DNA of 64,000 bases, taken from Naegleria gruberi. Taxonomy: Eukaryota. The notes below the pieces were generated by a model, which had not been told where the DNA came from, made no database searches, and was given only the letters and a program-made list of their open reading frames with translations. Location: NCBI GenBank assembly GCA_000004985.1, contig GG738901.1; one strand, given 5' to 3'. Each line of letters opens with the position of its first letter. Position 1 is the first letter of the stretch. This document shows, piece by piece, positions 9,809 to 42,039 of this stretch. The position numbers and the translations under genes are program-made.

Positions 9809-9883
9809 CTAAAATGTATGAATGCGAATAAACTTGGGCTTTCACATGTTGTTGTTATCAATTAGAAACCAAGAAAAATGTTT

Positions 9884-10514: not shown

Positions 10515-11119
10515 ATGAGAGAAAGTGGCGTAGTAAGTATTTGCATCTTGTGAAAACAATCTCACAAACTGTCTTTCTCATTACCCAAATGGTTTCTAAT
10601 ATACTTTCGAATAATAACAATATCGTTTTGTGATGATCATTATTAATAGGCTTATCTTCTTTGGTTAGGTTGTTGTATTGGATTCTTCGGTTTGCACCGT
10701 TTCTATTTGGACTCTGTCATTTTGGGTGTCATCTGGTTCTGTACTGCTGGTTTGTTCGGCTTTGGTCAATTGATTGATCTTAGTAAGTAATCTTATTTCT
10801 AATATATGATGATTTAACCATTATCTATTACTCACACTAACACACATTCCAACTTTCTCTGTTACGAAAATCAACTTTCGAATAACAATTTAATTCTAAA
10901 GTCCTCATCCCAGGTATGGTCGATGAATGTAACCGTAAATATGGTACTCCACAAGTTACCACTGCTGTTACCAACGTAACAACTTATCAAACTCAACCAC
11001 AAGTCCAACAACCATACGTCCCACCACAACAAGCATATTATCCACCACAACAAGGTTATGTTCCTCCACAACAAGGATATGCTCAACAACCTGCTGTTAA
11101 TGTTTATGTTCAACAATAA
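10515..11119 (+). CDS. TM2-domain protein with a Gln/Pro/Tyr-rich C-terminal tail (118 aa). Predicted three exons, join(10515..10532,10650..10782,10914..11119).
   Basis: Exon 1 is ATGAGAGAAAGTGGCGTA, followed by a GTAAGT donor. Intron 1 is 117 nt and ends ...TTAATAG. Exon 2 encodes [44 protein letters not shown], which carries the TM2-domain signature (W..G..GxHRFYLG) across two hydrophobic helices. Intron 2 is 131 nt (GTAAGT...TCCCAG). Exon 3 is the PQY-rich ORF 10916..11119, which on its own lacks any upstream context. Confidence 0.55.
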
Positions 11120-11769
11120 ATATTATTAAATAATTTTAATTATGATGATGAAATATTGTTTTGTTTCGAATAGTGCTAAAGAAGACTAATGGATTGTGAA
11201 GAAAAGTTAAGAAGGGTGATGATGGATCCATCAGAATATACAATAAAAAATGATGTTAAGAAGGAGAGCAGAAGATGAGTTGCAACTCTCAGCAACCATC
11301 ATCAAGGTTGAAAATCTCCAAACAGATCCCAAGTAAGTTTATTGCTTTATTCGAAAGTTGCCAACAACCCACATCAACAGCTCTGTCTATGCCATCCTAA
11401 CTTTCAATCAGGTCCAAAAGAAAGTTTCAACAGCCGACAAAAACCTCGAAGGAAAGAATAGTTACGAATGGTCTGACAATAACAATGTGCTCTTCAAGGA
11501 AATTCCAGAATTTTGCAATGAAAGACTCAAAATTGAAGTGAGGGATAAACAATCGGATAAGTTAATGTAAGGATTTTATGGATCTCAACTTATCTAATCA
11601 AATTGATTTATTTCATTACTATATTATTAATTGATATGATTTTAATGTCGTGCAATGATCATCATCATCAGGAATTAATTTATTATTTTAATTGATGATG
11701 ATCAAATTTATTTCCGAATGATCGATCAATTGAATGTAATATTAATAATAATAATACTATGTATTGATA

Positions 11770-26393: not shown

Positions 26394-28076
26394 TCATCTG
26401 ATACAATCAAGTACATAATGTAGGAAATAATAAATATCAGCGAAGGTGTACTTGATTTGATCATTTCATAAAGAACTTTTCTATTCTTAAGATTAGAATA
26501 AATCACCATAAGGAATTGTCTAGGAGCAATTTGACCCTTGAATTTTCCCAACTTGTCATTGATCTGAATTTGCCTCACATCGCTTACACTAAATCCAAAT
26601 GCTGTCAAAATCCAATTAATCAAGGAAATGTATTTTGTTGCCTGAACTGTTTTTAACTCTGAAACTAAATCTGTTTTTGGATCATACTTCATGACAGTAT
26701 ATTGTCCATTGAAAAAGTTTGAAGGTTGTAACCAAATTGAAGGAGCATTTTGAATACTCTTTGTATGTTTTCTCTTTTGAGCTTCCATGAAAAAATAATA
26801 ACGACTATAAACTTCTGACATCATGGCTCTCTTCCAAATGAAAATGAGTCCCAAACAGAATAGACCAATCCAGAAAACATTGCTTTGTTTCCATCTATTC
26901 AATCTACTGGCAGTCAACCAAGAATAGAAAAATACAATGAGTGTAAAGTCCCAACTCGTTACAATACCAAATGAATATAATTCTGATGAAATTGGATACA
27001 AGAGTGCAGTACCAAAATTAGTCATGAAATCCAACAATAAATGAGAACTCAAGCAACATGCAGATAATGTTGTACAATGTGTAAAGCTGTTAAATCCATG
27101 CAAGCCCAACACTTTCTGAACTCCAAAACCAATGAGTGGGGATAATAATAAATTAATAGGCAGAGAATGTGAAATAGTTCGCCTAAATGTAAGACTATTC
27201 TTGTCACGTCTTTCAAGCATGGCTTTCCAATTTCTTCTTGCGTTAGTAACTGTTGGTTGAGTATCCTCAGAATCAGAATCATATTGAGATAAATTACTAG
27301 AGCTACCAGCAGGAGTCTGTGCTGCATTAAGTGAAGAACTACTGAAACTTGAAGTCATTCCACCACCAGAAGATTCCTCCTGTTTCTTATTTGTTAATGA
27401 AATAAAAAGCTCCCACAATCTATGAATTCTGTCAATCATTCTCGAAAATCCCTTGAAGAATGACAAGAAAAACGAAATGATGAATAATGCAATATCTACA
27501 TCAGGTAAATTAGCCAAAATCATTCCAACTACGTAATACTTTTGTTCAAAAGTCAAATGGGAGAAGAATCGTTTAATTCTCCTCAGAAATTTAAACATAT
27601 TCGTGCTCAACACTTTAAAGAATTGTTTGAGTGATGTTTTTCTCAATAATTGTATCTTATCCTTTCCCATCATTAATTTACTTGCTCTATAGAGTTTCAA
27701 TTATAATATTTGGATCATTATTTTCCAATCAAGGCAATACATTCCATTGTCATCATTATCCGATAACAATATTTAAATAACAATTAATAGTAAATTTAAA
27801 TAATAATATTGATGATAATAATAATAATATTATAAATTAAATTGATGATCATCAAACATACCCATTAGCAGCCATTACTCCTCCATCCACAAGTGATTTT
27901 CCAATCAAGTAGAGAAATTGTTGTTGATCGGAGGTGTGTTTCAAATGTTCACTGTGTTTGACCATTGGACTCTCAGGAATCATTCGAAATCTCTTCCCTT
28001 TATCCGATACAAAATTCCTCTCAAACAAGTATCTCGAAATGACATAACCAAATATTGAGTGAATATCTGTTAACAT
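26390..28076 (-). CDS. Multi-pass membrane protein (about 503 aa) in two exons, complement(join(26390..27686,27862..28076)). The intron is 175 nt (GTATGT...CTATAG).
   Basis: The upstream 74-aa ORF 27852..28076 has a true ATG at 28076. Splicing its GG|GTATGT donor to the acceptor at 27687/27686 joins it in frame to the 436-aa ORF. That ORF starts at TTG and has no ATG until 27673. The intervening sequence is extremely AT-rich and intron-like. Several hydrophobic helices are present. The family is not recognised. Confidence 0.5.
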
Positions 28077-28300
28077 TTTTTTATCTTAGTTTTGTTTCTG
28101 TTGTGTAAACAATTGTTGTTTGATAATTTTAATACTTTAAATAATAAAATTAAATAATAATTATTAAATATTTATATATTATTAAATTATGGTTGAATTA
28201 TCGTGCTTGGGTCATCATCGTCTTGATCTTGAGAAAATATCGCAACTGACTCTAATATCCTAGGAGGTGAATAATAAATTAGTGCTGGTTCTCTGAATAT

Positions 28301-29406
28301 TTATTCAGTCTTAGTCTTCTTCTTCTTGTTCCAATGAGGCTTACCACCACGTCCACCAAAGCCCTTTCTCTTATTCTTATTGCTTTCAGCAAACTTAGCT
28401 TCACAGGTCTTAGCAATATACTTTTCCAAATCTTCTGGAGCCATTTCCGAAGCAACAGCTTTACCTGGAAGTTCAATCTTTCCTTCATCGAATTGTTGTT
28501 TAAGAGAATCGAAAACTTCCTTTGATTCCAATCGAAGAATAGCCTTGGTCTTATCACCATCGAGTGGGAAATCAATAAACTTCAAACCATTCTTCTTGTT
28601 GTATGGCAATTTCTTGGAGAAATCAGCAAATCCGAACTTTTCGTCACCTTCAATTCCTTGAATGTGCAAGAAAAAGTTTTGCTTCAATTCAGTTTGCATA
28701 TTAGAAACATCTTCTTGCTTCTTTTCTTGATTCTTCTTTTGCTTACTTTCTTCACGTTCCTTTCTCTTTCTATCAAAATGTTGTTGCTTGGTTTCCAAGA
28801 GGAGAACAGATTCTCCAAACTTGAAGTCAGACTTTCCAGCCAATTCATTAACAGTAGATTCAGAATCGAATTCAATGAAAGCAGATCCCTTGAATGTACC
28901 ATTCTTTTCTCTTCTGGCTCTAACACAGACAACTTTACCAAAAGGTTCAAAAAGAGCCTTGATTGAATCGAGATTAGCAACACTTTCATCGAGTGGGAAT
29001 CCCTTAGCATATAAAGTACGAGCATTGCTAGTATCAACTTCTGGAAGAGCAGTGATTCTTCTAACCAACTTTCCTTCAGCATCAATTTCCAACATGGAAC
29101 TCTTCTTCAAAGCAGAAACAATAAGATCCATATCAGTAGAAATTTGTTTCATTCTATTAAAGGAAGCAATAGTCTTAAGTTCAACATCTATTCATCATCA
29201 TCATTATCAAATTATCATCATCATCAACAATAATATCAATGTATGGGATATCGGTTAATCAATATTGACAATATAAAACACTTACATCCTTCAGGATTGT
29301 TAGCAACGAGACTTCTCAAAAATTTATCCTTTGGAAGATTACTATCACTAAAGTAGAATTCAACTTGTTCACGAATCTTGTTTGAAGTAATTTCAGCGTC
29401 AGACAT
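28301..29406 (-). CDS. La protein homolog (La motif plus RRM) in two exons, complement(join(28301..29187,29286..29406)). The intron is 98 nt (GTAAGT...GAATAG).
   Basis: Exon 1 encodes MSDAEITSNKIREQVEFYFSDSNLPKDKFLRSLVANNPEG, which is the canonical La motif start (QVEFYFSDxNLxxDxFL). Splicing continues with (G)YVELKTIASFNRMKQ..., then an RRM-like region, and a Lys/Glu-rich C-terminus ending in a basic tail. The intron contains an (ATC)n microsatellite. Confidence 0.85.
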
Positions 29407-29832
29407 TTTGGTTATTGTTGTATTTTTTTAAAGACGAAAAAACGTTCAAATTTATTTCTGCAATAACATTTGTTGAAGTTGCTCAGAAATGCATAACAGA
29501 TAATAATAAAATATTTGATGATGGTGATGATGAACATGGAGATCAAGATCTGCATGATATGGTTCGGAATGATTCGTTTTTGAAATATAACGTGTTTATA
29601 AATACATTATCATAATGATGTGAGTTAGGTAATTGTTAATTGTTTAATATTAATGTGAGCATTATTAAGGATATAATTTCAATTGTCATCCTCAATGACA
29701 TTTCATGATAGGACTTCTTGGTTCACTACACTTTTGTTGGAATAACTATCTAGAGCTTGATCTCATTTTCATATCTAATCTTGGTTCCCTATAATATAGG
29801 AACAGCTAAGCAAAGCTTATTGCCTAAACAGC

Positions 29833-31136
29833 TTAGTTTTGATGTTCAGGGTGATTATGTCTCGAGTAGAGTGGTTGATCATCTATTTCGTCAGATAAAT
29901 CTTGTATATGAAGACCAGCAAAGGTACTTGAGCTCAGTGTACTCAATTTGATAACTTGCATTTTGCTGAGGGAGATTTCTAATTCTTGTTCAATTTCCTT
30001 TGAGGATTCCTCAGTGATGGCATTCTGATTTTGTAACCAATTGATAAAGTATTCTTCACTGGAGCAAGTGAGGATTGAGAAAACTATTCCTCTATAGTAG
30101 GACCAAAAGTAGTAACTGCCAACAAATATTGGTGTCATGGAGATGACAATTCTGATTGGAATTATTCTGTGAAGTGATAAGAGCCATGTCAGTAAGGCAA
30201 TAATAATACTAGCTACAATAAGAATGAGTCCACTGGTTTCAGTTGCTGCAGAACTGAACTCTTCAAGTACTCTGGAGAAAGTGAATATTGTAAATAAATT
30301 ATTAGTGAACACTTACTTTCTACTAAGAATAATCATAATAACAATCAATACCAAGTAAAAAATTGTAAATGAAAAATTGACAGCAACAGAAGTGACACTA
30401 TATCTACACTTGTCATTGCTAATATAAATTTCCTCAATTGCACTCGCAATAATACAGTAAATTATTACAGGAATCAGCAAGAGCACAATGAAAACCATGT
30501 TAATATATTTGAGTTTTCTCTTTGTTTTAAATCCAATCAAGACAATGAGTTGTCTTGTGAGCAATGTGCAAATCCAACCAAACTATTTCAATTTTTTAGA
30601 ATAATCCATTGCGAAGAAAATACTTACAAATCCAATATTGAAAAACCAAATTGAAAATGTCACACACAATCCCTTTGTTGAATTTGCGAGTAATCCATTA
30701 TTGAACTGTAAAATTCGAAAGATTAAGAATGTATCATTTCTAATACTGAAAAATATGAAATACCTACACAATATCCAATAAACATGACTGCATTGAAGAA
30801 TAAAGTTTTTGCCATTAGAAAGGGATGTTTCGAACGGACAGCAATCTTCTTGTACTTGGTAAAAACCAAAGCCATAGCAACGAAATTACACAAAATCATG
30901 AAACAACCAACAGAAAAAGCAACAATATCTGCAGGTGTTTGTGATGGTACTGGTTTAAATCCGAAAGGGTTTAGAATAGATGAATTAGAGGAATCTCCTG
31001 AATATAATGGTTGATATTGTTCCGTATCAAAATCTCCAAATAAATTAAACAGAGTTGATAGGAGTGGTGTTTGTTGTTCTTCTCCTATCGAATGAAATGT
31101 TAAATGTGTCATGTCATCCACAGTATGTTGAGACAT
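29833..31136 (-). CDS. Seven-transmembrane receptor-like protein (383 aa) in four exons, complement(join(29833..30271,30317..30582,30628..30705,30768..31136)).
   Basis: Four consecutive minus-strand ORFs in different frames join exactly through three introns. The introns are 62 nt (GTAGGT..TTTTACAG), 45 nt (GTAAGT..AAATAG) and 45 nt (GTAAGT..CTCCAG), and the phases are consistent. The spliced protein has an ~60-aa N-terminal tail, seven hydrophobic helices, and an acidic C-terminal tail. The ATG at 31136 was checked. Confidence 0.7.
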
Positions 31137-31269
31137 TTTTTATTATAATTGTTTGATGGGCTGACAAGCTTGATTACAATACTTTCGAATATTGTGATAC
31201 ATACATTTATTATGTATAGTGGAGAACTAAATACTGATTAAATATTAAATACATGCAGAATATCTTTGA

Positions 31270-32250
31270 TTACAGAACAAATCTTGGTACGTTCTCATTT
31301 TCCTGTGCTAAATAATTTATATTATCAATGTTATTCATTGATAACATGTTTCCAATATTAAATTGAGTAAGGTCTGTATTCTGAGAGAGGAGAAATGTCA
31401 GAATAGTTTCAGAATCATTTGGTCCTGTATATTCTGTGAAATAATCAGAGAAGGGATACTTTTCCAATTTTTCCTTAAAGAGATCAAGCTTGGTAAAAAC
31501 TATTGAAACATCCGCTGGTATATATTCTGAATAATTTACAAATTCACTAAAATTTTGTAAAGCCAACCAAAGACAATTAGCTCCAGAAATTGAGTCTGTT
31601 AAATTGTAATCTGCAAGGGAAATTAAATAAATTACTCGTGTCATGGTATTGTCAAAATGAGAAATCCACTTTCGTTTCTCATTTCTTTGTGGACTAGGAT
31701 CAATTAGTTTACTTGTTTCAAATGAAAATTCATAAATTGATGACTTGGAATGAGGTATTTTAGTTTGTAAAAGATCATGAATTGTAAAATCTGCATTGAT
31801 TGCTTGTAATTTGGCAATGAAATTCTCAGAAAAAAAGTATCGAATATTTTCCATATATCTGAAATGATGTGAAATGAATTCCAATTCCTCACTCTTTAGC
31901 ATTGTTAAATATTTCATAAATTCGATCATGCTTGATGTGAAAACTCCACTTTTCCTAGCTTTTTTAATTTCCTCATTTAAATTACTGAATTTAAAATCGA
32001 CTATTTTGAATGTTTGCCAACAGATGTCCAAACATCGAATGACATACTTTCGAATATGCAATTCTCTTTCTTCCGCATTCATCATGCTATTAGTTTCTTT
32101 CGATAGATGATAAATTCCATGTCGAAAGGTTGACTTTCCACTTGAACATGCTCCTAGAATTAGTATTTGTTTTTTGCATGGTGTAATTCTGCGTCTCAAA
32201 GCAGTATCAATAGCTTGACTGTGAAGTTTCTGCTGCTTTCGTTTACTCAT
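31270..32250 (-). CDS. Divergent heterotrimeric G-protein alpha-subunit-like protein (326 aa).
   Basis: The G1 P-loop is QILILGACSSGKST. A helical-domain-like insert follows. A block aligns with the G-alpha switch I to G3 region (...LIDPSPQRNEKRKWISHFDNTMTRVIYLISLADYN). DVGGQR is replaced by DPSPQR. The G4 NKxD motif is replaced by TKLD. There is no N-terminal MG(C) lipidation motif. Confidence 0.7.
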   Translation of the reverse strand: MSKRKQQKLHSQAIDTALRRRITPCKKQILILGACSSGKSTFRHGIYHLSKETNSMMNAEERELHIRKYVIRCLDICWQTFKIVDFKFSNLNEEIKKARKSGVFTSSMIEFMKYLTMLKSEELEFISHHFRYMENIRYFFSENFIAKLQAINADFTIHDLLQTKIPHSKSSIYEFSFETSKLIDPSPQRNEKRKWISHFDNTMTRVIYLISLADYNLTDSISGANCLWLALQNFSEFVNYSEYIPADVSIVFTKLDLFKEKLEKYPFSDYFTEYTGPNDSETILTFLLSQNTDLTQFNIGNMLSMNNIDNINYLAQENENVPRFVL

Positions 32251-32623
32251 TTTTTTCTTTCGTGGTTCTGCAAAAAGTTCTTGTCTTGTTCACTATAAGT
32301 AAGAGAAAGTAAGTTTGACTACAGCTCTGAAAAGTAATCTATTCGCAAATGAGGCAGTTTTACCACATTCCTAAATGAAAATTTTCTTTCCAAAAAAACA
32401 TTTGTTGAATTTTGGCTCCTTTTACCCAGGAAAAATGAAAGTCCTTTAAAGTGCATTCCGACTTACTCACATATCTGTTCGTTCATTATTATCTGATCTA
32501 TTTACCACATGCAATGAACCTCTTAAGAATCCATCAAGTGATAAAAAAACAAATAAATTGATCTCAATCATTGTAGAGGATTAAAATAATATTGTTTTTA
32601 TTCAATTACTATTTTTAAAATCA

Positions 32624-33061
32624 ATGTTGAACAATAAATCTGAGCGAAGTGGTGATGAAAAAGAGGAGGATCTTGTGATTCAGAATCCCTCTAACTGTAA
32701 ATGTAATAATCACAACAATGGTAAGCAGCATCTTGAAGGGACAAATTTAATGCAACAACCACAACCACTGTTGGATGATGATGTGAATGATATTCTTCAA
32801 TTATTAACAATAGAAAGTTGCAGTGGAGGTTGTAGCTTTGATTGTCTTAAATTCGAAGAGAAGGAAGCAGTCGAAGAGGATACCTGTAATCCAATGTCGC
32901 AACAACATCTTCCTTCCGATATCAAATCGGAACCAATTCTCCTACTGCTTACTGATAAGAAGGCAACATCAACAATGGATCACAACGTAAGTTATCATCA
33001 AACATGTAAATTAACGTGCCATTTGGGCGATTTGACTAATTCAGAAGTCGTATGCATCTAA
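32624..33061 (+). CDS. Hypothetical acidic protein (145 aa) with weak support.
   Basis: ATG at 32624. The 145-aa ORF is acidic, sits between two convergent/divergent genes, and belongs to no recognised family. Confidence 0.3.
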   Translation: MLNNKSERSGDEKEEDLVIQNPSNCKCNNHNNGKQHLEGTNLMQQPQPLLDDDVNDILQLLTIESCSGGCSFDCLKFEEKEAVEEDTCNPMSQQHLPSDIKSEPILLLLTDKKATSTMDHNVSYHQTCKLTCHLGDLTNSEVVCI

Positions 33062-33239
33062 CAAACAAGGCGACAATTTTCATCATGAAAAAAGAACAGA
33101 CAATATCATCAACAAGAAGAACAAGGCTTCCTCATCATTAGGCAGTGCTTTTAAAGAAGATTTTGTAAATTTTGTTTCAGAATCCACAAGTTCCTCTTAC
33201 ATTCCGCAACAGCCATTCACAACATTATATTCGAAAAGA

Positions 33240-36200
33240 ATGAAGGACGAAGAGATGGTGGAGAATAATCAATCTACTGTTAATGAAGATGGAATCAAGA
33301 CATCATCTGAAGCTAAACCAACACAATTTAACCACTCCTCACATCATCAAAGGCCTCATCATATTAACAAGGGTCTCGGAGAAGAACAACAATACAAATT
33401 TCCTTCATCTATTACACCACTTTCACTGGCCAATATTCATGCCAATGCATCGACTAACTTACTGCTAACTTCATCAACATTATTTAATTCTTCAAGTGAA
33501 TCACATGGTGGTGGAACCATTTCGAGAAGCTCCTCCAATACTTCAATGGATAGCTCCTCCTATTCACTCTTGAATAATCACCATCATCTAACCACATCTT
33601 CCTCACCCTCTGATGGTTTTCACTCAACTCTAAAATCCCTAGAAAATGTTCTCCCTCCATTCTTTACTCCATGCGTGCCACCTCATGCATCATTCAATTA
33701 CTATTCAGAACATTATTGGGGAGAACATCCCTTATCACTAACCTCCTTCTCTCCAATTCTTCATTATGAAAAGAAGTCATCTCTAACGATTATTTGTCGA
33801 TACACACCACAACAAACTAGGAATTCTCCAAGAAGGGAGAGACCTTCCTCTCAAAAAGAATTAATAGAGAATGAGATTTATTGTCTGAAAGTTTCACTGG
33901 ACAAACCATCCATTCCAAAGCTGGAAAGGGATGCAGAAATTTCTCGATTCTTGACCAATGAATTTTCTCAAGTGTTGGATCCAGCACAACAGGTTATTGT
34001 CAGTACTAAGGCCTATTTGTCTGATTATTTTATTCTCGTGAGGGAGTTTATTGATTGTGTTTCGTTGAGATCATTTATTGATAGATCGAAAACATATGCT
34101 AGAGCAGAACCAATTACTGATGAGAATTTTGAAACCTTAACAGATGATACTGTAACACTTCTCAATGAAGAACAACGAGTGAAAGAAAACATTACAATAT
34201 TGGAAAGTAATTTAACACTTGCTATTTCTATTTGTATGAGTGTTGCTCAACTGCATCACTCAAGAGTTTGTCATGCTGACATTAGGCCAGAAAATATAAT
34301 TGTAGAAGGACCTAAATGCAATATAAGATTGATTGATTTTGGAAAGAGTACATTCCTCCCTTTGGAGCATCCATTTTTATATACCGATAAAATTATTGGT
34401 AGTCAAATGTATTGTGCTCCAGAGGCAACAGGAAAGATTCCAAAACCAATAGGTTTCCACACTGATATATATTCACTTGGATTTGTTCTCTTTGAGTTAT
34501 TTTCCAAAGAACATCCATTTACCAAGTTTAGGACATTAGATTTCGTATTTCAACATTTGACTCAACAGCCAGAGTCCTTGTTTCAAAATCTAGCGAGAAG
34601 GTCTTTTATATCAGCCAATGAAGGAAACCTATTCACAGCTGCTACTAAAGCAATTTCAAGACTAATTACCAAAGCAATTCAAAAATCTATTGAGAAACGT
34701 TATTTGAGTATTTTTGGATTGAAACGAGATTTGGTCTACATACAGAATGCTATTCAACTAGAAGATATGGAAGCTCTTGAAAATTTTCAAGCTGGTATGA
34801 ATGATGTTCAAACAACTTTATCCATACCTTATGGTGTATATGGTAGAGAGGAAATTTTCAAAAAATTGGAACTGAAACTTGAAAATATGATGGAATCTAG
34901 TGAGCCAACGATTGTCCTTCTGGGGGGCTATAGTGGCATAGGTAAATCATGTATTGTTAAGGAGTTTAGGACAAGAAGTAAAACAGCAATACAATTCTTT
35001 GAGGCAAAATACGATCAACATATGAATGTACCTTACTATGCCATTATTTCCATATGTAAACAAATTATTGGCGACGTTCTTGGAGAATCTGAATCAGTGA
35101 TTAAGGATTTCAGATTCCAACTTGGTACACTTATCAATTCAGATCAATTAGAAATGTTGAGTGATGCAATTCCTGACATGTCATATTTATTTACAACTAA
35201 TGCAACCAAAAAGCATACCTCCCCATCAATGGGAGATCAGAATGGAGAGCGTATGAAGCTCTTTTCACAAGGAAGTAAGTAATATTTTGAATTTAACATT
35301 ATAACAATATTATATTGCTCAGTTATTCATCTCTTTAGTGTTTATACTCATTTAAAGAAAAAGAGGTTATGCATTTTCTTGGATGACTTGCAATGGACTG
35401 ATTTTGATAGCATGAAGCTATTGAAGGAAATTCTTGGAACTGGTTCTTGTGATACTGTTCCTCTTTTAATTATTGGAGCATATAGAAATAACGAAGTGGG
35501 AAAGGACCATCCTCTATTTTACTTTTTAGAAAATCTCAAACTTAAAGTGAACATTGAAGAAATTGAAGTTGTTGAGTTGACAGAAGATCAATCTAACATG
35601 ATTGTCTCAGAGTCTTTAAGGAAAAATAGAGCTGAAACAGAAGAACTAACCAAAATACTCTTCTCTAGGACGAATGGAAACCCCTTCTTTTTAAAGCAGT
35701 TATTGGCTGGTTTATTTAAGGACGGATCTATTTATTTCGATACTCAAACAGATACTATTACATGGGATAAAAAGAAAATAGAAAATGCAGAATACTCTGA
35801 AAATGTTATTGACTATCTCCTTGGACATTTGGAAAAATTACCAAAACAAACACAAGATATTCTTGCATTTGCTTCTTGCTTTGGAAATAAGTTTTCCAAT
35901 GAAGACATGCTCCACCTACTCAATCAGCAACAAGAAGAAAAGATAGACTTGATGCAACTTAAAGAAAGATTGAACTATGCGGTGAAGGAGGGATGGATTT
36001 CAAATATCAATTCTGGTAATTTACGATTTAATCATGATAGACTCCAACAAGCTGCTTATGAATCACTGCCTTTGAATGAAAGGTTGAGAATTCACTATAC
36101 CTATGGTAAGCAGCTTCTCAAAAAAGCAGAAGAAGATGATTCTTTGGAGGAACGTTTATTTGATATAGTTGTACAGTTAAATCACAAACATAATGATCCT

Positions 36201-39200
36201 GCTTTCTTGGAGAATAGAGATGAGAGAAGATTACTCATTGACCTCAATAATAGAGCTGCAAAGAAGGCTTTGGAAACATCATCTACAGATAAAGCCATTG
36301 GCTTTGTTTATATTGCAAGGCAAATTCTAGAACACGAACCAGACTGTTGGAGTGAAGAAACTTATAAGTTGGCTTTTGAGAGTTTACTAATTGTTGGTAA
36401 TTGTAACTATTCTGTAAATATAGAATTGGCAACCTCTCTATTCATGGAAGCTATTCAAAAAGCTCAAAACAAGACAGATCTTTATGAGGCATGCAACCAT
36501 GGATTGATGGCCTATCTTTCACAAGGAAAATATGAAGATGTGTTTAAAATTTTGACTGATCATGTATTTACTACATATGAAGAGTTGAATTTCCTTACTC
36601 AGGAGCATACTGTTGAATCCTTGACAACATGGATACTTAACAAGATGAAATACATGAAAGAACATGTGCTCGTTAATTTTACTCAAAAATCTGACATTCT
36701 CAATTTGCCAGATATTGATGATTTGGAAAAGTGGCATCTTATTTGTTTGCTCACTCAATCCTGTCCTGCTGTTTTTCATATGAATAACTCACTCAGCAAA
36801 CACTACTTTATGATTATGATATTAATATCGTCTGATATAGTTTTAAATAATGGCATTACTCCTCTTTCCCCATTGTTAATTTCAGTCTTTGCATGGTCTT
36901 GGTGTAATTTTGAGTTTTATCCTCAGATGAACATGTTCTTAGAGGCAGGATTAGAGATGGAAAAGACTAGATTCAGGAATGAGCATGAATTGGCAAGTTG
37001 CACATTGATGAAGTTGATGAGTTATTACTTTTCGCCAACAATTAACCCTCTTGAGGTGTGGAATATATCCGAGGAAGCCTTCTTATTGTCTGTGAAATCA
37101 AAGAACAAACACTATGGCGGTTTCTCTATTCTGTGGTATCCATTCCATCACTTATTCTATAGCCACGGAGATGTAAAGACTTCTATTGGATTGAGCTTGA
37201 ATTCAATTGAGATTTTCAAGAGAAATGGAAATGTTATGTTGATGGATGCCAGTAAAATGATACTGGAATTGAAATATGTTCTTTCAGGAGATGTAGACCA
37301 TTACCTGCCAACGTATGTAAGCCAAGTGAAGGAATATCCATTCTTTAGACAAATGCACTACTCGTTCAAGGGAATTTCACTCTATTTCCAAAATGATATT
37401 GAAAAATCTTTCAAGTGTATGGAAAAATCGTATGATTTTAGAGAAGACTCTGTTGGTATGTGTTCAAGCTGGATTGATTTAATCTTCCTAGGTTTAATCT
37501 CAGCTATCTTTTTGAGAAGTGCTCAAGAAAAGATTGAAAAAGCCCAAGAAATACTGAAATATTCTATAGAAAGATTGGAAATGATTTCCCAAGCTAATTC
37601 TTCTGTTTTTCTTGCTCCTTTGGAGTTCATAAGAGCCGAGACATTGTACTCAGAATATTGTAGAACAGGTGTCGAAAATACTAGAAAAATCATTTCTCAC
37701 TACAGAAAGAGTTATATTATGGCTGAAAAGGAAAGAAACACCTTTTTAGCTAGGCTGATTAATTTGAGAACAGGAGAGTTTTACAACAGTCTAGGTATGG
37801 ATGATGGTATTAGTGGAAACTACTTCCTTAGAGCTATGGAATCTTTTGAACAGTTTGGTGCTTCCATCGTTGTTGATTATATTTTGGAGAATTATTCAGG
37901 TCACATCGATGGCTATTCATCATTTAGTAATAGAAATCCTGAACAAGTATTCTCTAACACTTCTCTATCTGATGAAACAACAGATCACTCTCTTGCTGGA
38001 GTAACAAAGAGCAGAATTTCTGAATCAACAGAATTGGATTTTAGAGAGATTTTCATTTCAATTCTGCCAATTCTTTCAGAACAAACGTTATCACCAAGAT
38101 GTTGTTTGATTTTGAAGAGAGATTCAACAGTTTATGTAGATGCCGAATTTAATGCAGACCTGAATTCTATTGAAGCACTTTCGTCTACCAAACAATTCGA
38201 AAATAGTGATTTGGACAAATTTTCAGATTTATTCCCTCTCAAGATGATTCACAGAACTCTAAGATCCAGAACAGAGCAACAACTCGTATGGAATGACAAT
38301 GAGAAAGAGTATTACTTTGTGAAGAATGTAGTGGCCTCTGCTTTATCTATTCCTATCATGAAGAAAAAGACAGTCATAGGTATGCTTTTTATTATTATTT
38401 TATTTATATTATTTAATGTATTAAGGTTGTATATACTTGGAAAATAAGGAAACGAAGGATGTATTCACAACTGAAAAAATTAACCTTGCCAAACTTATCA
38501 TCTCGATCAGTTTGGACAATGCTGGAATTTTCACATCTATTAACAAATCCTATGCTAGGTTTTTACCTGCTGAATTCTTAAAGTTGCTTGGAAAGAGTCA
38601 CGTAACTAAGGTAAGGTTGGGCGATGCAGTTTCTAGAGAAATGACAGTGCTCTTCAGTGATATTTATGGATTTACAGAGATTATGGAGGGACTTTCTGCA
38701 AAGGATGGCTTTGCTTTTATTAATCTACTATTGAAGAGTATTGCACCTCCAATTTCAAGAAACTCTGGATTTATTGACAAGTTTGTTGGTGATGGAATAT
38801 TGGCATTGTTTATTGAACCGCAAGGAGCTGTCACTGCAGCTTTAGAAATGATTTCAGAATTGGAAGTTTTCAATAGTAGAAATAATACCAATGTAAAGTT
38901 GGGAGTTGGTTTGCATCATGGTATTGTTCAACTTGGTACGATTGGATATGAGCAACGATTGGATGCTACTGTTATTTCAGATACTGTGAACACAGCTAGC
39001 AGATGTGAATCTCTCACAAGAACTTTTCATTCACATATTCTAGTTACTAAACCAGTTATGGATGCTGTTACAGTGCCACACAGTGTGATAAGTACCGAGT
39101 TGGGTAAATTCATGCTGAAAGGAAAACACATACCTCATCAAATTTACAATATCGCTTCTAAATCATGGAAAGGAAGTGGTAGTGCTAAAGAATTCGCTTT

Positions 39201-39423
39201 ACTAAGCAAAGTTATTGATCTCTTCTCCAGGAGTGAATTTACCGAATCATTTGCCCTCGCAGAAACAATTCTCAAGAATACAAAGAACAATACCATTATA
39301 GCTGCATGCAACATGTATAAGGAAGCATCAACATTATACGGATCAGTTGTTTTACCAAGTGAATGGCAAGGTGAAATTCGGTTGACCAAGGATGGAGAAG
39401 TCAGAGAGTACTTTTCAAAATAA
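33240..39423 (+). CDS. Large multidomain signalling protein (about 2029 aa) with a Ser/Thr protein kinase domain, a STAND/AAA-type P-loop NTPase, a long helical (TPR-like) region, and a class III adenylyl cyclase catalytic domain. Three exons, join(33240..35274,35323..38379,38426..39423).
   Basis: Three consecutive plus-strand ORFs must be joined. The kinase motifs are CLKV (VAIK Lys), HADIRPEN (non-RD catalytic loop), DFG and APE. The Walker A motif (GGYSGIGKSCIVKEF) sits at the end of ORF 1. The matching Walker B motif (LCIFLDDLQWTDFD) sits at the start of ORF 2. A 48-nt GTAAGT...CTCAG intron removes the intervening TAA. ORF 2 and ORF 3 are joined by a 46-nt GTATGC...TTAAG intron. The cyclase has metal-binding Asp in FSDIYGFT and KFVGDG. 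Its purine-specificity Lys/Asp pattern points to adenylyl cyclase, and it ends in GVGLHHGIVQLGTIGYEQRLDATVISDTVNTASR. The total length is divisible by 3. Confidence 0.75.
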
Positions 39424-39582
39424 ATGAGAGATTTCAGATAAATGAAAATTAATTTTCAACAAGCAATCCATCAAACCATTCAGAATCCAATTTAAATATA
39501 AATGGAAATTATCACATTGTACAACAATTAGCATATTAGTCACCTCATCCCAATAAATCACAACAAACCAAATTGAAAAAAA

Positions 39583-42039
39583 ATGAAAAAACGACATTCA
39601 ACCTTTTCCACCACAATCAATCATCGAGATTTGATTAAATCATCTAATTTTAATTCATTATCTACTAGTAATATTCAATCATCATCATCACCAATATTGA
39701 GCACTACTTCTAGAAAAGGCTTCCGAGAACGACCACTCATCAAATTCATATTAAAACAACGTTCCAAACGATTGCAACAACAAGGCTCTAGTGAGTTTGC
39801 TGGTGCGGAAGTGGAAATTTTGAAGGCTTGTTGGAGAAAAATAGAGGAAGAGGAGATGAAGGACTATCGAGAAAATCTCTCGAATCGATTGGGGTTTTAT
39901 TTTGATGATGAGGAATTGTTGGCCATGTTCGGAAATCAATTGATGAAGGATGAAGAGGAACTACAGCAGAGGACGACAATGGATACTACCAACACTGAAC
40001 CAAGTTCGGCTGGTGGTGCTACTCTTGACAATTCTTCACTGAAGAGTGGTGACAGTGCTCGTTCATTGACAAGTTTCGGATCTGACTCGAAACTAAATTC
40101 GCCAATTAGTCCCAACCTCGACAAGAAGCATTTGCAGTCAACTTCATCGACCAAAAGCTCCACTTCATTTGCATCCTTCTCTGGTGCACCATCATCACTC
40201 ACACCAAGCCCAAACATTGAGGAGAACAAAAATCTTTCCTACCTCTACGATATTCATACTTTTCCTAGCAAGCTGAATCTGATACCAACCATGCATTATA
40301 ATGTGTTGGATGTTGTTGAGTTGTCCTCTGTACAGCAAATTGTAAATATAACAAGTCCTTCTTCGGAGATTGGGATACTTAAAGATTGTACAAATGATTC
40401 TTCTCCTACTGTAAATATTGAATCAACCACTTTTAGTCTCGAGATTTTAGATAGTTTTATTACTGTTGATTCTTTTGAAGATTTTTCAAATCCTTCATAT
40501 AATCCACTCAATATTAGACATTTATATTGTGATTATTGGTCCAACAAACTAGAATTCAAACAAAGGATCAGTAAATCTTCTCTTACTTCAAACAATAAGA
40601 AGGAAAATGAAAAATCAAAAAACTATATACCATTTGAAGAATTGGAAAAATGTAGAAATTGTACAGAACTCAAATTGAACAATAACAAGATTAGATCTCT
40701 AGATTCTAAACATTTTACCAATTTTGCACACTTGACAGAATTGAATCTATCTTCGAATAGAATGTCTAAAGCAAGACTGCCTGAGGATATTTTCTCACAT
40801 ATGCCACATTTGCAGAGGCTTTCTCTCGATTATATGGGTCTTAAGACTCTACCAAAATCAATTAACAAATTGGTAGAGCTTACCTACCTTTCACTTTCCT
40901 TTAACAAATTGAACACTTTCAACTTGCTACATGGAAAAGACAGACACTTGAATGATTTTTGGCCAAAATTGACCAATTTGGAGTACTTGAATTTGTCTGG
41001 AAATAGATTGAATAGATTTCCTTCAGAAATTTGTAATTGCAAATCATTGGAATTTTTGAGTTTGTCCAACAATAGAATAATTAACGAGATACCAAAGGAA
41101 ATTGAAAATCTCAAAAAATTAGCAATACTCTTCTTGAATGGAAACAAAGTTACTGCTCTTGATATTAATAGAAATTTGGAATTTTTAGAGAATTTGACCC
41201 ATTTGGAATTGGGTCACAATCCTAATATCCATGTGGTTCCACCTCCTGTTTACAATTTAACCAAATTAGAATCACTCTGTTTGAGCCATCTAACCATTAG
41301 TCATTTATCGGATGATATTGGAAAATTAAGAAATTTGACTCACTTGGATTTGTATGGCTCCAAACTAACTGGTCTTCCAAAGGGTATTTCACAGCTTATC
41401 AACCTTAGGAATTTGGATATGCGATATTGCAGAGGTATCAAGGAGTTCCCTATTGAATTGTTTGGTCAAAAAGTTTCAAGTAGCACTATCACTACTACCT
41501 CTCCAATGAAATCCCTTACTAGATTGAGTCTTAGCTATACAATGATAGAGAGCATTCCTGAGGATATTTCCTCTCTCCAGAGTTTACAAGCACTTTTGGT
41601 GAATGACTGTCCCTTGCTCGAAGAAATTAAGGGTATTGACAAGCTTGTCAATCTTGTAGAGTTTGACATCAGTCGTTGCATCTCCCTTGTTGAGCCTCCT
41701 TCTGATGTGTGTGAGAGAGGTCTTGCCCACATTAGAGGATATCTGAAAGAAAAGGACGATGGACCTTCTATTTTTTTAAAGTTTATTGGATCAGTATTTG
41801 GTGGAAATACCTCAAATAATTCCTCCACCAACAAGAAGAAACTACCTTCACCAATAGGCACAGAAAACAACCTCAAAGTGGAACACAATGAATTACTTGT
41901 TGCCTCACCAGTACCAAGCATTAATTCTGGAGATGATGATGGTGATAGTGATTCTGATGATGAGATTGGCGCATCTAAAAAGAAGAAACCAAGTCCAAGT
42001 GGCAGTACTGTCAAGTCATTATTTTCCTTTTGGAAATAA
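39583..42039 (+). CDS. Leucine-rich-repeat protein (818 aa) with a Ser-rich N-terminal region and about 16 SDS22/Shoc2-type LRRs.
   Basis: ATG at 39583. The LRR pattern repeats, for example LTELNLSSNRMSK, LQRLSLDYMGLKTLP, LTYLSLSFNKLNT and LEYLNLSGNRLNRFP. The C-terminus is acidic and Ser-rich. Confidence 0.8.
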   Translation: MKKRHSTFSTTINHRDLIKSSNFNSLSTSNIQSSSSPILSTTSRKGFRERPLIKFILKQRSKRLQQQGSSEFAGAEVEILKACWRKIEEEEMKDYRENLSNRLGFYFDDEELLAMFGNQLMKDEEELQQRTTMDTTNTEPSSAGGATLDNSSLKSGDSARSLTSFGSDSKLNSPISPNLDKKHLQSTSSTKSSTSFASFSGAPSSLTPSPNIEENKNLSYLYDIHTFPSKLNLIPTMHYNVLDVVELSSVQQIVNITSPSSEIGILKDCTNDSSPTVNIESTTFSLEILDSFITVDSFEDFSNPSYNPLNIRHLYCDYWSNKLEFKQRISKSSLTSNNKKENEKSKNYIPFEELEKCRNCTELKLNNNKIRSLDSKHFTNFAHLTELNLSSNRMSKARLPEDIFSHMPHLQRLSLDYMGLKTLPKSINKLVELTYLSLSFNKLNTFNLLHGKDRHLNDFWPKLTNLEYLNLSGNRLNRFPSEICNCKSLEFLSLSNNRIINEIPKEIENLKKLAILFLNGNKVTALDINRNLEFLENLTHLELGHNPNIHVVPPPVYNLTKLESLCLSHLTISHLSDDIGKLRNLTHLDLYGSKLTGLPKGISQLINLRNLDMRYCRGIKEFPIELFGQKVSSSTITTTSPMKSLTRLSLSYTMIESIPEDISSLQSLQALLVNDCPLLEEIKGIDKLVNLVEFDISRCISLVEPPSDVCERGLAHIRGYLKEKDDGPSIFLKFIGSVFGGNTSNNSSTNKKKLPSPIGTENNLKVEHNELLVASPVPSINSGDDDGDSDSDDEIGASKKKKPSPSGSTVKSLFSFWK

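Follow-up and report, generated by a model that had tools for sequence, protein, structure and literature searches.

Class III nucleotide cyclases form their catalytic centre at a dimer interface, and the guanylyl cyclases among them carry Glu and Cys/Ser/Gly at the specificity positions. Counterparts of the locus described here are proteins in which such a cyclase follows a kinase-like domain, a P-loop NTPase, and a GAF domain, and our literature searches returned no study of any member of this architecture and no biochemistry for the family.

A single gene for a multidomain cyclase

Within a stretch of 64,000 nucleotides from Naegleria gruberi (contig GG738901.1; hereafter the window), we find that three same-strand ORFs at positions 33240–39423 are one nuclear gene, with 3 certain exons and probably 4, encoding one soluble signalling protein. 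Removing both introns leaves 6090 nt—i.e. 2029 codons plus a stop, with zero internal stops. The spliced product has 2029 aa with a start at 33240, and 2215 aa with the probable upstream exon. Its domains are, in order, a kinase-like domain, a STAND-type NTPase (an AAA_16 NOD), a long helical region, a GAF domain, a helical linker, a class IIIb cyclase, and a short helical tail.

An earlier note, made from the sequence alone, had proposed that one gene with 2 short spliceosomal introns joins a domain of Ser/Thr-kinase type to a P-loop NTPase of the STAND kind and to a class III cyclase. This core claim holds, as the spliced product has Pfam matches to Pkinase, AAA_16, and Guanylate_cyc and the Naegleria lovaniensis ortholog (P0001) is collinear over its whole length. 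The note's gene model missed the GAF domain, the helical region of ∼750 aa, the probable upstream exon, and the question of kinase activity. We regard the overall reading, which joins an intron-containing gene, this domain order, proposals for cAMP production and a STAND switch, and a heterolobosean family, as likely. Because the kinase-NTPase-GAF-cyclase architecture is already present in related amoebae and bacteria, the finding is a fairly ordinary one.

Eight ORFs flanking the gene are exact matches to N. gruberi NEG-M proteins, and an LRR gene adjoins the cyclase gene in both N. gruberi and N. lovaniensis. Neither the 2029-aa nor the 2215-aa model is an exact entry in the protein collection searched, and we infer that the annotated N. 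gruberi model for the locus is EFC39209/XP_002671953.

Distribution and origin of the family

The earlier note's view of this architecture as one of bacteria and a few protists is borne out: Acrasis kona has a collinear locus with the same architecture, most of that gene being unannotated, and the same order of domains is found in Ruegeria, Nostoc, and gammaproteobacterial MAGs. Full-length bacterial counterparts also sit on bacterial contigs. Heterolobosean sequences are monophyletic in both the cyclase-domain tree and the tree of the kinase and NOD module (84% in each). The family is thus vertically inherited in Heterolobosea (Naegleria and Acrasis), while its N-terminal sensor module is otherwise overwhelmingly bacterial, and a bacterial origin is plausible.

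Whether the whole kinase-NTPase-GAF-cyclase cassette came from a bacterium as one unit, through horizontal transfer, is more doubtful, and we hold such an event possible but the less probable course. The best non-Naegleria match to the whole protein is a bacterial sequence of identical architecture (P0004, 442 bits), strong matches to the N-terminal module are all bacterial or metagenomic, and the architecture is shared with Ruegeria, Nostoc, and Gammaproteobacteria. However, the bacterial affinity that the earlier note put forward as a sign of transfer did not emerge from our trees, which are crude NJ trees of few taxa, built without fungal or amoebozoan homologs: heterolobosean cyclase domains group with P0004 or P0008 in 0/100 bootstraps, and the best-supported sister group in the N-module tree reaches 33%. 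In that tree the bacterial cyclase-output proteins are polyphyletic, so outputs appear to have been swapped often. The alternative to cassette transfer is assembly within heteroloboseans, in which a sensor module of bacterial type was joined to a separate GAF-cyclase.

Kinase-like and NTPase modules

The kinase-like domain (33747–34799, plus strand; approximately residues 170–520 of the 2029-aa model) matches Pfam Pkinase with 81.1 bits over profile positions 102–252, PK_Tyr_Ser-Thr spans residues 248–436, and its best solved relatives are bacterial PknB-type kinases. Key residues in our alignment A1 are K217, E233, H345-A-D347, R349, N352, D366-F-G, and A393-P-E. The domain is of the non-RD type, as the earlier note had remarked, with HAD in place of HRD at 34272–34295; it has no GxGxxG loop and carries an insert of ∼45 aa ahead of the C-lobe. 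The kinase-like domain may be inactive, because it has neither a glycine-rich loop nor the arginine of HRD nor the lysine of the catalytic loop (DIRPEN for D-x-K-x-x-N), and because the Acrasis copy has EFS for DFG.

The AAA_16 core (34836–35474, plus strand; residues 533–729) is interrupted by intron 1, and Pfam recovers it from the spliced product as a single stretch over that junction (E = 1.3e-23, profile positions 2–167 of 167). Walker A (GGYSGIGKSCIVKEF; GYSGIGKS) lies at 34923–34967 and Walker B (LCIFLDDLQWTDFD; CIFLDD) at 35367–35408. The two motifs had been placed at the 3′ end of one ORF and the 5′ end of the next ORF in the same frame; the second position is right, whereas Walker A is near the end of ORF 1 but 105 codons ahead of its stop. 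G566, K569, D699, and D700 are invariant in alignment A1. The STAND-specific HMMs NB-ARC and nSTAND6 score below their cut-offs on the spliced product. The fold was compared through N. lovaniensis, whose ortholog shares 47% identity with the N. gruberi protein over the NOD region, and the NTPase module of that ortholog folds like MalT, Apaf-1, and NLR NODs, with MalT, Apaf-1, NRC2, and NRC1 giving the best superpositions (query-normalized TM 0.51–0.53).

A helical region follows (35688–37922, plus strand; residues 801–1545), which is presumed to be the sensor or scaffold arm of the STAND module. This region of ∼750 aa has no Pfam match in the N. gruberi protein and no recognizable repeat family. 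It is collinear with the bacterial homologs, where TPR_CHK1 scores 28.2 bits in P0011 (above the cut-off of 27) and 22.6 bits in P0004 (below it).

The substitutions in the kinase-like domain raise the prospect that neither it nor the NTPase is catalytic, both serving as scaffolds (a pseudokinase and a locked NTPase), and that the cyclase is regulated through its GAF domain alone or is constitutive. Beyond the losses listed above, bacterial relatives are variable at the kinase sites (HKD/DINPxN, and IELD in P0008). Nevertheless, the Naegleria proteins keep the beta3 Lys, the alphaC Glu, the catalytic Asp, the Asn, and the DFG Asp, and no member of the whole family departs from the Walker A Lys or the acidic pair of Walker B, which argues for retained nucleotide binding or hydrolysis. 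We consider a purely scaffolding role for both modules unlikely.

GAF domain, linker, and cyclase

The GAF domain (38040–38496, plus strand; residues 1585–1721) is interrupted by intron 2 at Gly1698. Its Pfam match covers profile positions 2–124 of 133 with E = 2e-4 and falls just at threshold, with 22.3 bits where the cut-off is 22.4; the same region of bacterial homologs gives E = 6e-11 and E = 2e-17, and AF2 predicts a high-confidence alpha/beta fold there. The AF2 model of residues 1546–2029 has a pLDDT of 90.2, and in it a continuous helix runs from the GAF domain to the cyclase domain; the helical linker holds a cyclase-transducer-like motif, RFLPAEFLKLLGK, from 38557. The suggestion that the cyclase domain starts exactly at the 46-nt intron does not stand, as the junction codon, Gly1698, belongs to the last GAF strands in both Pfam and AF2, and the Pfam cyclase match begins 70 residues later, at residue 1768.

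The class III catalytic domain (38635–39129, plus strand; residues 1768–1932) scores 56.8 bits with Pfam Guanylate_cyc (cut-off 21.9). It has the metal-binding residues D1776 and D1820, the specificity pair K1816/T1879, and the transition-state residues N1886 and R1890, and in an alignment to bPAC and OaPAC all six catalytic columns (D, K, D, T, N, R) are conserved. The AF2 cyclase model superposes on CyaC and CyaB with a TM of ∼0.8 normalized to target and an rmsd of 2.1–2.7 Å, its best fold matches being class IIIb adenylyl cyclases. Judging from the Lys/Thr specificity pair, which predicts adenylyl and not guanylyl activity, the N. gruberi cyclase should make cAMP. All six catalytic residues are on one chain, so the protein is predicted to form two active sites as a homodimer (or higher oligomer).

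UniRef calls both the ortholog P0001 and P0002 "Guanylate cyclase," the Pfam family spans both activities, and specificity rules have exceptions, all of which would suit a guanylyl cyclase, or else a dual or inactive enzyme. We judge this improbable, however, given that the database name is a generic domain name, that the specificity positions, Lys (KFVGD) and Thr (DATVISD), are the same as in bPAC and OaPAC, and that the best matches in sequence as well as fold are class IIIb adenylyl cyclases.

Behind the cyclase domain, a three-helix, TPR-like extension (39181–39420, plus strand) ends in a conserved W-x-G-E-I-R-L-x-K-D-G motif. Its AF2 helices span positions 406–420, 424–437, and 441–457 of the model, with a block-mean pLDDT >90 over them, and it is conserved in N. 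lovaniensis and in Acrasis kona P0052 and P0053.

Exon-intron structure

On the plus strand, an exon at 33045–35274, in which 33240 is the start codon of the earlier model, encodes an N-terminal stretch that is disordered, then the kinase-like domain, and finally the half of the NTPase that carries Walker A. Intron 1 (35275–35322; 48 nt, GTAAGT..GCTCAG, phase 1) contains exactly one in-frame stop, the TAA at 35280–35282 that ends ORF 1, just where the earlier note had seen it, and the ORF of 33240–35282 and the next ORF share a frame. Exon 2 (35323–38379) covers the remainder of the NOD, with its helical and winged-helix parts, then the helical region and all but the last quarter of the GAF domain, and has an in-frame codon score of +0.191. 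Intron 2 (38380–38425; 46 nt, GTATGC..TTAAG, phase 1) brings about a +1 shift that leads into the third ORF, and its proposed removal indeed joins the two frames and matches the ortholog. Exon 3 (38426–39423) carries the end of the GAF domain, the linker, the cyclase domain, and the helical tail, with the stop codon at 39421–39423.

The agreement of these introns with the gene model is far beyond chance, because their GC content is low (0.19 and 0.11, respectively, vs 0.34–0.37 in exons), no other AT-rich GT..AG segment within 32500–39500 has a strong donor, and both junctions restore the ortholog P0001 residue for residue without an indel. A scan of the same interval found no further intron-like segments. 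N. lovaniensis has an intron at the intron 1 site (KVFSQS/IIHLL, GTAAGT..TTGCAG/TTATT; slashes mark junctions) and continuous coding DNA at the intron 2 site, where splicing yields KKKTVIG/CIYLENKE in N. gruberi against the uninterrupted SVLGCVYLENRE. No alternative acceptor of intron 1 preserves the frame. For intron 2, acceptors at 38448 and 38457 were rejected by an acceptor scan and direct reading of the sequence, as neither yields an open homologous frame.

To an ORF finder of the prokaryotic kind, the locus shows an in-frame TAA and a shift of frame by +1, as would a pseudogene in decay or an assembly in which a stop and a frameshift had arisen by error, but given the GT..AG bounds, the base composition, the indel-free recovery of the ortholog, and the shared intron noted above, together with the lack of any other stop in 6 kb, a codon usage that is uniform across all exons, and intact cyclase catalytic residues, real lesions are extremely unlikely. 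Equally hard to credit are 2 or 3 separate products (one with the kinase and half of the NTPase, terminating at 35282, one from the middle, and a cyclase on its own): there are three distinct ORFs and relatives' models are often fragmented (N. fowleri P0003 ends before the GAF domain, and Acrasis "cya" is the tail only), yet separate products would split Walker A from Walker B of one AAA_16 and halve the GAF domain, N. lovaniensis and bacterial homologs carry all domains in one chain, GenBank protein numbering has space for no more than one plus-strand model from 25864 to 39583, and none of the three ORFs by itself corresponds to an annotated protein.

The single spliced gene probably begins upstream of 33240, where the frame is open for 68 codons ahead of the ATG (33045–33239 scores +0.200 bits/codon). 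A candidate intron 0 (32987–33044, plus strand; 58 nt, GTAAGT...TGACTAAT..TTCAG, phase 0) has a GC content of 0.345, above that of introns 1 and 2, and would join this open frame in phase to a probable first coding exon (32624–32986, plus strand; 121 codons, ATG at 32624) that is absent from the earlier model. That exon, a low-complexity N-terminal extension, lies in an ORF of 32624–33061 preceded by an AT-rich spacer of 373 bp (GC 0.29), and it scores +0.233 bits/codon for codon usage in its own frame, the five other frames all being negative. Both this exon and the open stretch ahead of the ATG resemble the verified exons in codon usage. Our searches found no homologs of the extension.

Proposed mechanism and comparison with known systems

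By analogy, a signal picked up in the helical arm, the GAF pocket, or both would lead to nucleotide exchange and NOD oligomerization. The oligomer could then bring together or re-orient two cyclase domains through the rigid GAF-helix-transducer linker, turning cAMP synthesis on, and the non-RD kinase-like domain might add a phosphorylation output or auto-regulation, or merely bind nucleotide. This mechanism is drawn entirely from other proteins: the analogues of the switch are the STAND proteins MalT, Apaf-1, and NLRs, those of the cyclase regulation are the GAF- or BLUF-regulated cyclases CyaB1 and bPAC, and the fungal group X histidine kinases provide a further one.

Gene structure of the cyclase locus

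ORF finding splits the cyclase gene into three plus-strand ORFs: 33240..35282 (680 aa), a second one in the same frame listed from 35379 to 38447, and 38437..39423. The earlier note had read these as one gene of ~2030 aa hidden by short introns, and the spliced sequence bears this out. Excision of intron 1 (35275-35322, 48 nt; GTAAGTAATATTTTGAATTTAACATTATAACAATATTATATTGCTCAG, GTAAGT..CAG) and intron 2 (38380-38425, 46 nt; GTATGCTTTTTATTATTATTTTATTTATATTATTTAATGTATTAAG, GTATGC..AAG), both on the plus strand, leaves 6090 nt, i.e. 2029 codons and a stop with no internal stops, and the product matches its Naegleria lovaniensis ortholog at both junctions. The single TAA that had been placed inside the 48-nt interval lies at 35280-35282 and is the only in-frame stop separating the first and second ORFs; the intron 2 interval shifts the frame by +1 into the third. 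As also proposed, the Walker A (GGYSGIGKSCIVKEF, 34923-34967) and Walker B (LCIFLDDLQWTDFD, 35367-35408) motifs flank intron 1. The GC content is 0.19 in intron 1 and 0.11 in intron 2, compared with 0.34-0.37 in the exons.

We also scanned 32500-39500 for strong donors that begin AT-rich GT..AG segments; this gave 35275 and 38380, plus a weaker site at 35251. At the former two, the open homologous frame is kept by the proposed acceptor only. Donor 35251 (GTATGAAG, within the ERMKLF codons) was rejected, as its intervals either break the frame or remove residues conserved in the ortholog. The same scan found no further hidden in-frame introns, and an 18-aa N. gruberi-specific insertion (33690-33750), considered as a possible hidden intron, is not intron-like.

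Comparison with the N. lovaniensis ortholog (P0001, C9374_007874) supports both junctions. At junction 1 the spliced product KLFSQG|IIHLFSVY corresponds to KVFSQSIIHLLRVY, both pairwise and in the family alignment, and the longer stretch ERMKLFSQG|IIHLFSVYTHLKKKRLCIFLDDLQW aligns with ENMKVFSQSIIHLLRVYAQMKRKNLCIFLDDLQW with zero indels. The same holds for junction 2, where KTVIG|CIYLENKE corresponds to KSVLGCVYLENRE and IMKKKTVIG|CIYLENKETKDVFTTEK aligns with IIRDKSVLGCVYLENRETEDVFTVEK, again with zero indels. In Pfam searches, one AAA_16 stretch (aa 533-729 counted from ATG 33240, full profile) runs over junction 1 and one GAF stretch runs over junction 2. Mapping P0001 back to its genomic locus yields six introns in the N. 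lovaniensis model, one of which (GTAAGT...TTGCAG|TTATT) sits exactly at the site of intron 1. At the site of intron 2, the N. lovaniensis DNA is continuous coding sequence, so the GAF and cyclase domains belong to one chain independently of any splice prediction.

The ortholog comparison, the shared intron, and the junction-spanning Pfam stretches exclude, for practical purposes, two other readings of the locus. Specifically, two or three separate genes are ruled out by the AAA_16 and GAF matches that cross the junctions and by the continuous coding of the ortholog, and a pseudogene is ruled out by the junctions, the shared intron and the restored frame. Contamination was rejected, given eukaryotic flanking genes, the presence of introns, and uniform GC. 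We hold the gene structure with introns 1 and 2 to be correct with high confidence.

Neither the 2029-aa model, nor a longer model of 2215 aa, nor the separate ORFs match any entry of the protein collection exactly, and an N. gruberi entry is absent from the homolog search matches with the protein. The plus-strand GenBank numbering (39208 at 21467, 39210 at 39583) leaves one model, EFC39209, for an interval that holds only the cyclase gene, and the gene is very probably already annotated under that accession as one gene, with XP_002671953.1 and EukProt EP00686_P004024 as its presumed counterparts.

Eight ORFs around the gene are exact N. gruberi NEG-M proteins (EFC39204, 39205, 39206, 39208, 39210, 39211, 39213, and 39277); the cyclase gene is thus a nuclear heterolobosean gene, in which short spliceosomal introns are expected. 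The window is AT-rich throughout (GC 0.31-0.37). Annotated genes include a poly(ADP-ribose) glycohydrolase (EFC39204, 12657-14180, plus strand) and an 818-aa LRR-domain protein (EFC39210, 39583-42039, plus strand), which adjoins the cyclase gene. An LRR gene also lies beside the N. lovaniensis ortholog, there on the other strand from the cyclase gene; in the window the two genes share the plus strand, and this difference in orientation suggests a local inversion. On the other side, a G-protein alpha subunit ORF (31270-32250, minus strand; Pfam G-alpha, E=3.9e-44) stands head to head with the cyclase gene. As this exact ORF is missing from the annotated proteins, additional exons are likely for the G-alpha gene. 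The spacer between the G-alpha start and an upstream ATG at 32624 (32251-32623, 373 bp, GC 0.29) probably holds a shared divergent promoter.

A candidate upstream exon

Reading upstream from ATG 33240, its frame meets no stop for 68 codons, and just upstream of it, in another frame, lies a 145-codon ORF that starts at ATG 32624. A candidate intron 0 (32987-33044, 58 nt, plus strand), with GTAAGT at 32987, TTCAG ending at 33044, and TGACTAAT ten bases before the AG, joins this ORF in phase with the frame of ATG 33240. At a GC of 0.345, it is less AT-rich than introns 1 and 2.

Codon usage was scored as log-odds, trained on six verified genes of the window, with their out-of-frame and antisense codons as background. 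The score is +0.233 bits/codon for the candidate exon and +0.200 for 33045-33239, compared with 0.18-0.20 for the certain exons and 0.23 for the first 147 codons after ATG 33240, and all other frames of both upstream stretches score negative. The 186 residues that the exon would add are low-complexity. Pfam and a homolog search with the candidate exon found no homologs of these residues, and the case for the exon is for this reason made entirely by ORF length, splice signals and codon usage. Together, these point to a probably real exon starting at ATG 32624, in which case the protein has 2215 aa.

An out-of-frame ATG at 33085-33144, between the end of the 32624 ORF and ATG 33240, opens a 19-codon ORF. 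With ATG 33240 as the true start, this would be a uORF; with a real upstream exon, it is just part of the coding region.

Domain organization

A low-complexity N-terminal region (aa 1-~150) is followed by a kinase-like domain (aa ~170-520), which matches Pfam Pkinase with 81.1 bits (cut-off 31.7) at profile positions 102-252 only, i.e. over the C-lobe. Its best solved relatives are bacterial PknB-type kinases. In the family alignment, which is weak in the N-lobe, the beta3 Lys K217, the alphaC Glu E233, D347, N352, and the DFG Asp D366 are present, and E233, H345, and D347 are invariant. The GxGxxG glycine-rich loop is absent from the domain, both in the sequence and in the alignment. The motifs HAD and DIRPEN carry Ala in place of the HRD arginine, in agreement with the non-RD kinase described before, and Arg in place of the catalytic-loop lysine. 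Because the glycine-rich loop, the HRD arginine, and the catalytic-loop lysine are lacking, we term the domain kinase-related. It could serve as a second output or in autoregulation, or be a pseudokinase.

The AAA_16 NTPase (aa 533-729) contains Walker A (GYSGIGKS, aa 563-570) and Walker B (CIFLDD, aa 695-700), and the Walker G, K, and DD are invariant across the family alignments. Only the generic AAA_16 profile passes its threshold in the window protein, the STAND-specific profiles NB-ARC (16.8 vs 23.5 bits) and nSTAND6 (18.8 vs 27.7 bits) being sub-threshold. A single-sequence PDB search with the NTPase region gave no matches; a profile search of the PDB gave mostly P-loop-only matches, with PH0952, a STAND protein, and Apaf-1 as weak further matches (E=3.5e-4 and E=4.6e-3, respectively). 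The fold of the NTPase module with its nucleotide-binding, helical, and winged-helix parts (NOD) was tested on the N. lovaniensis ortholog, whose corresponding 441 residues were modelled with AlphaFold (pLDDT 88.3). Globally, the model fits best to MalT (8bob), Apaf-1 (3sfz), NRC2 (8xuo), and NRC1 (8bv0), with query-normalised TM of 0.51-0.53, and Cdc6/Orc1 reaches similar E-values with a TM of 0.35-0.41 only. By the modelled fold, STAND-type is a fair description of the module, the STAND-specific HMMs notwithstanding.

A helical region of 746 aa (aa ~801-1545) follows the NOD. It has no Pfam match in the window protein, TPR_CHK1 included; the corresponding region matches TPR_CHK1 in two bacterial homologs, P0011 above the cut-off of 27 (28.2 bits) and P0004 below it (22.6 bits). 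The kinase, NTPase, and cyclase assignments of the earlier note are thus recovered by Pkinase, AAA_16, and Guanylate_cyc above threshold, and of the other profiles that it proposed to search, NB-ARC falls below its cut-off and TPR has no match in the helical region of the window protein.

The cyclase domain had been thought to begin where the 46-nt intron is spliced. We find instead that intron 2 cuts a probable GAF domain (aa 1585-1721) at Gly1698, and that Guanylate_cyc covers aa 1768-1932. The GAF profile match falls just short of its cut-off (22.3 vs 22.4 bits, E=2e-4, profile positions 2-124/133), which the homologous segments of bacterial relatives pass clearly. An AlphaFold model of aa 1546-2029 (48-sequence alignment, pLDDT 90.2) has a confident alpha/beta domain with flanking helices at the GAF position, whose last helix continues into the RFLPAEFLKLLGK motif and the cyclase domain. 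The NKFDE motif, a signature of cNMP-binding GAFs, is not found in this GAF, which reads LENKETKDVFTTEKI and has no F-x3-D-E.

The cyclase domain scores 56.8 bits with Pfam (cut-off 21.9). Among solved proteins, the photoactivated adenylyl cyclases bPAC and OaPAC are nearest to it in sequence, followed by CyaB, Cya2, and CyaC, and all six catalytic residues coincide with those of bPAC and OaPAC in alignments. These are the metal-binding D1776 (FSDI) and D1820 (GDG), N1886 and R1890 (VNTASR), identical in both enzymes, and the specificity pair K1816 (KFVGD) and T1879 (DATVISD), which occupies the same columns. A fold search with the AlphaFold model retrieves the class IIIb enzymes CyaC and CyaB (TM ~0.8 target-normalised, rmsd 2.1-2.7 A). 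In class III cyclases, Lys with Thr (IIIb) or with Asp specifies ATP, and Glu with Cys or Ser specifies GTP. By these established rules, the Lys/Thr pair predicts a class IIIb adenylyl cyclase rather than a guanylyl cyclase, a choice that the earlier note had left to these residues, and we regard adenylyl cyclase activity as quite likely. Carrying all six catalytic residues in one chain is the mark of a homodimeric class III enzyme, and from these residues we infer a homodimer that would make cAMP. The database name of the orthologs, 'Guanylate cyclase', is a generic domain name.

Behind the cyclase domain, the AlphaFold model has a three-helix tail of high confidence (39181-39420), which is also present in P0001 and in two further sequences (P0052 and P0053). 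The tail ends in W-x-G-E-I-R-(L/I)-x-K-D-G, common to the heterolobosean proteins and one EukProt sequence. In the bacterial homolog P0008, the motif is reduced to PWDG.

Conservation in Heterolobosea

The best database match is P0001 (1990 aa, 49% identity, 93% coverage), which is collinear over its full length, reaches 69% identity in the cyclase domain and has the same Pfam domains. It shares with the window the intron in the Walker A/B spacer and the adjoining LRR gene, and differs in five other introns, none of them at the site of intron 2, and in an unrelated N-terminal low-complexity region. The Naegleria fowleri model FDP41_008422 differs in that it stops immediately ahead of the GAF domain. 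The sequence is carried on by another fragment (P0113, a Logan contig of 3254 bp), which has the GAF and the first part of the cyclase domain and after NKLL runs into what is intronic in N. lovaniensis; truncation of the N. fowleri gene model is thus probable. In the alignment, the N. lovaniensis paralog C9374_004727 lacks ~30 NTPase-core residues and two blocks of the helical region compared with all other family members, and these gaps are either gene-model artefacts or real deletions.

Outside Naegleria, the nearest eukaryotic relative of the cyclase domain is an annotated 458-aa 'cya' of Acrasis kona, which groups with the Naegleria sequences at 84% NJ bootstrap. The 'cya' model starts mid-GAF, and the 6.3 kb upstream has no gene call. 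This upstream DNA encodes a collinear kinase-like domain (with EFS where DFG is expected), AAA_16 domain, and long helical region, so Acrasis has the same giant gene, at about 23.5-30.7 kb of contig JAOPGA020001024.1 (positions 4141-11377 of the extracted locus, with ORFs at 4141-4647, 4695-9896, and 9863-11377). The full architecture is therefore older than the Naegleria-Acrasis split.

Bacterial relatives and origin

Bacterial proteins of the order Pkinase-AAA_16-(TPR_CHK1)-GAF-Guanylate_cyc have the same domain order and a similar size (1750-1780 aa), and can be aligned with the window protein end to end, the FxPxEFLxxLGK transducer motif included. By contrast, they are intron-less single ORFs on bacterial contigs and are 22-25% identical to it. 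Two metagenomic ones, P0004 and P0008, have exactly the same architecture, including the C-terminal helical tail, and their contig neighbours are bacterial (PemK toxin, IcmF/DotU, Toluene_X; SDH, Spore_YtfJ). P0004 differs in its complete Pkinase match, from profile position 4.

A scan of prokaryotes with P0004, using one genome per species, identified counterparts over the full length, cyclase included, in two Gammaproteobacteria MAGs, Nostoc sp. ChiSLP01, and four Ruegeria species. Far more numerous are relatives that share just the first ~1470 residues and have other outputs; those in the first homolog search carry histidine-kinase, SpoIIE-phosphatase, GGDEF, or sigma-54-activator outputs. 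One partial match in the scan comes from a MAG of Parachlamydiaceae, a lineage that includes amoeba symbionts. The architecture, which had been described as typical of bacterial multidomain cyclases and a few protists, thus occurs in Ruegeria, Nostoc, Gammaproteobacteria MAGs, N. lovaniensis, and Acrasis.

An NJ tree built from 601 columns of the kinase C-lobe and NOD unites the heterolobosean sequences in one clade (84%), and the best support for a sister group is 33%. The bacterial proteins with cyclase output (Ruegeria, Nostoc, Gammaproteobacteria MAGs) are scattered in this tree, which argues for frequent, repeated swapping of output domains. In the NJ tree of the cyclase domain, the heterolobosean sequences group with P0004 or P0008 in 0%, and the bacterial proteins of the same architecture were accordingly rejected as direct sisters of the Naegleria cyclase domain. 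Neither tree identifies a bacterial donor. The earlier note had proposed a test for bacterial affinity. As almost every relative is bacterial, it is plausible that at least the sensor module came from bacteria. Transfer in one piece from a bacterial kinase-NTPase-GAF-cyclase is not supported by the cyclase-domain tree, but both trees are crude and such a transfer may still have taken place.

Possible mechanism and significance

Within a single chain, the complete class IIIb catalytic set comes after a probable GAF domain, to which a continuous helix connects it; nearer the N-terminus are a kinase-related domain and an NTPase that has intact Walker motifs and, in the model of the ortholog, a MalT/Apaf-1-like fold. 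By analogy with known systems, a signal would be sensed by the helical arm and/or the GAF pocket and would license nucleotide exchange and oligomerisation of the NOD. Oligomerisation could then bring together or re-orient two cyclase domains via the rigid helical transducer, as in bPAC, OaPAC, and GAF-regulated CyaB1-type enzymes. We offer such a STAND switch for the cyclase as a tentative proposal, with the odds somewhat against it. A broader reading would make the protein a eukaryotic STAND signalosome, in which ligand- and nucleotide-driven NOD oligomerisation turns on the adenylyl cyclase, and possibly the non-RD kinase, by induced proximity; it would be an inflammasome-like sensor with cAMP as its output, ancient in Heterolobosea, and would correspond, with a cyclase as output, to the group X histidine kinases that sense peroxide in fungi. 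We consider this reading rather unlikely.

Naegleria is known for its large and varied set of cyclases, and the analysis provides a well-supported gene model for one of these many cyclases, with a corrected domain map (i.e. an intron-split GAF), a likely longer N-terminus and a predicted product of cAMP, not cGMP, despite the database name of its orthologs. The earlier note was essentially right in its interpretation; the corrected map, the likely longer N-terminus, the adenylyl cyclase prediction, the conservation across Heterolobosea, and the truncated Acrasis and N. fowleri models are additions to it. The sensor module (kinase-like/STAND/GAF) of fungal group X and of many bacterial multi-kinases is here joined to a cyclase across a protist lineage, Acrasis included, and a bacteria-like cAMP input would thus be present in relatives of the pathogen N. 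fowleri. Public protein databases already show the architecture for N. lovaniensis and bacteria, and what the finding adds is better annotation, not a new principle. Our literature searches found no paper on the architecture or any of its members, and the Naegleria pangenome paper merely counts cyclases (PMC9928731).

Comparison with known systems

Among known multidomain proteins, mycobacterial PknK combines a kinase with a MalT-like region, and Rv0386-type proteins have the order cyclase-ATPase-TPR-LuxR; the latter differ from the window protein in their N-terminal cyclase and in having neither kinase nor GAF. The likeness to STAND NTPases (MalT, Apaf-1, and NRC1/NRC2) lies in the NOD of the ortholog, which superposes on theirs, and in the retained Walker A and B, and the long helical region after the NOD recalls TPR-type STANDs. 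The differences are a marginal sequence similarity and the position of the effector domains, which in the window protein lie on both sides of the NOD.

In sequence and fold, the cyclase domain is best matched by the class IIIb cyclases bPAC, OaPAC, Spirulina CyaC, and Pseudomonas aeruginosa CyaB, which share its Lys/Thr pair and have a helix leading from the sensor into the catalytic domain, as in our model. Anabaena CyaB1 belongs to the same class, with an N-terminal sensor and a helical transducer. By contrast, these enzymes have BLUF or tandem GAF/PAS sensors, are 200-860 aa long, and contain no kinase-like or NTPase module.

For the sensor half, the comparison is with fungal group X hybrid histidine kinases, for which an N-terminal Ser/Thr-kinase-related domain and a GAF sensor have been described (PMC6324907). 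By family description, group X (Candida albicans Chk1, Schizosaccharomyces pombe Mak2/Mak3) and its bacterial counterparts share these two domains with the window protein, and a further link is the Pfam family TPR_CHK1, named after CHK1, which matches bacterial homologs of the window protein. Their output is HisKA/HATPase/receiver rather than a cyclase, and the window protein stands outside the group X family, resembling it in the sensor half only.
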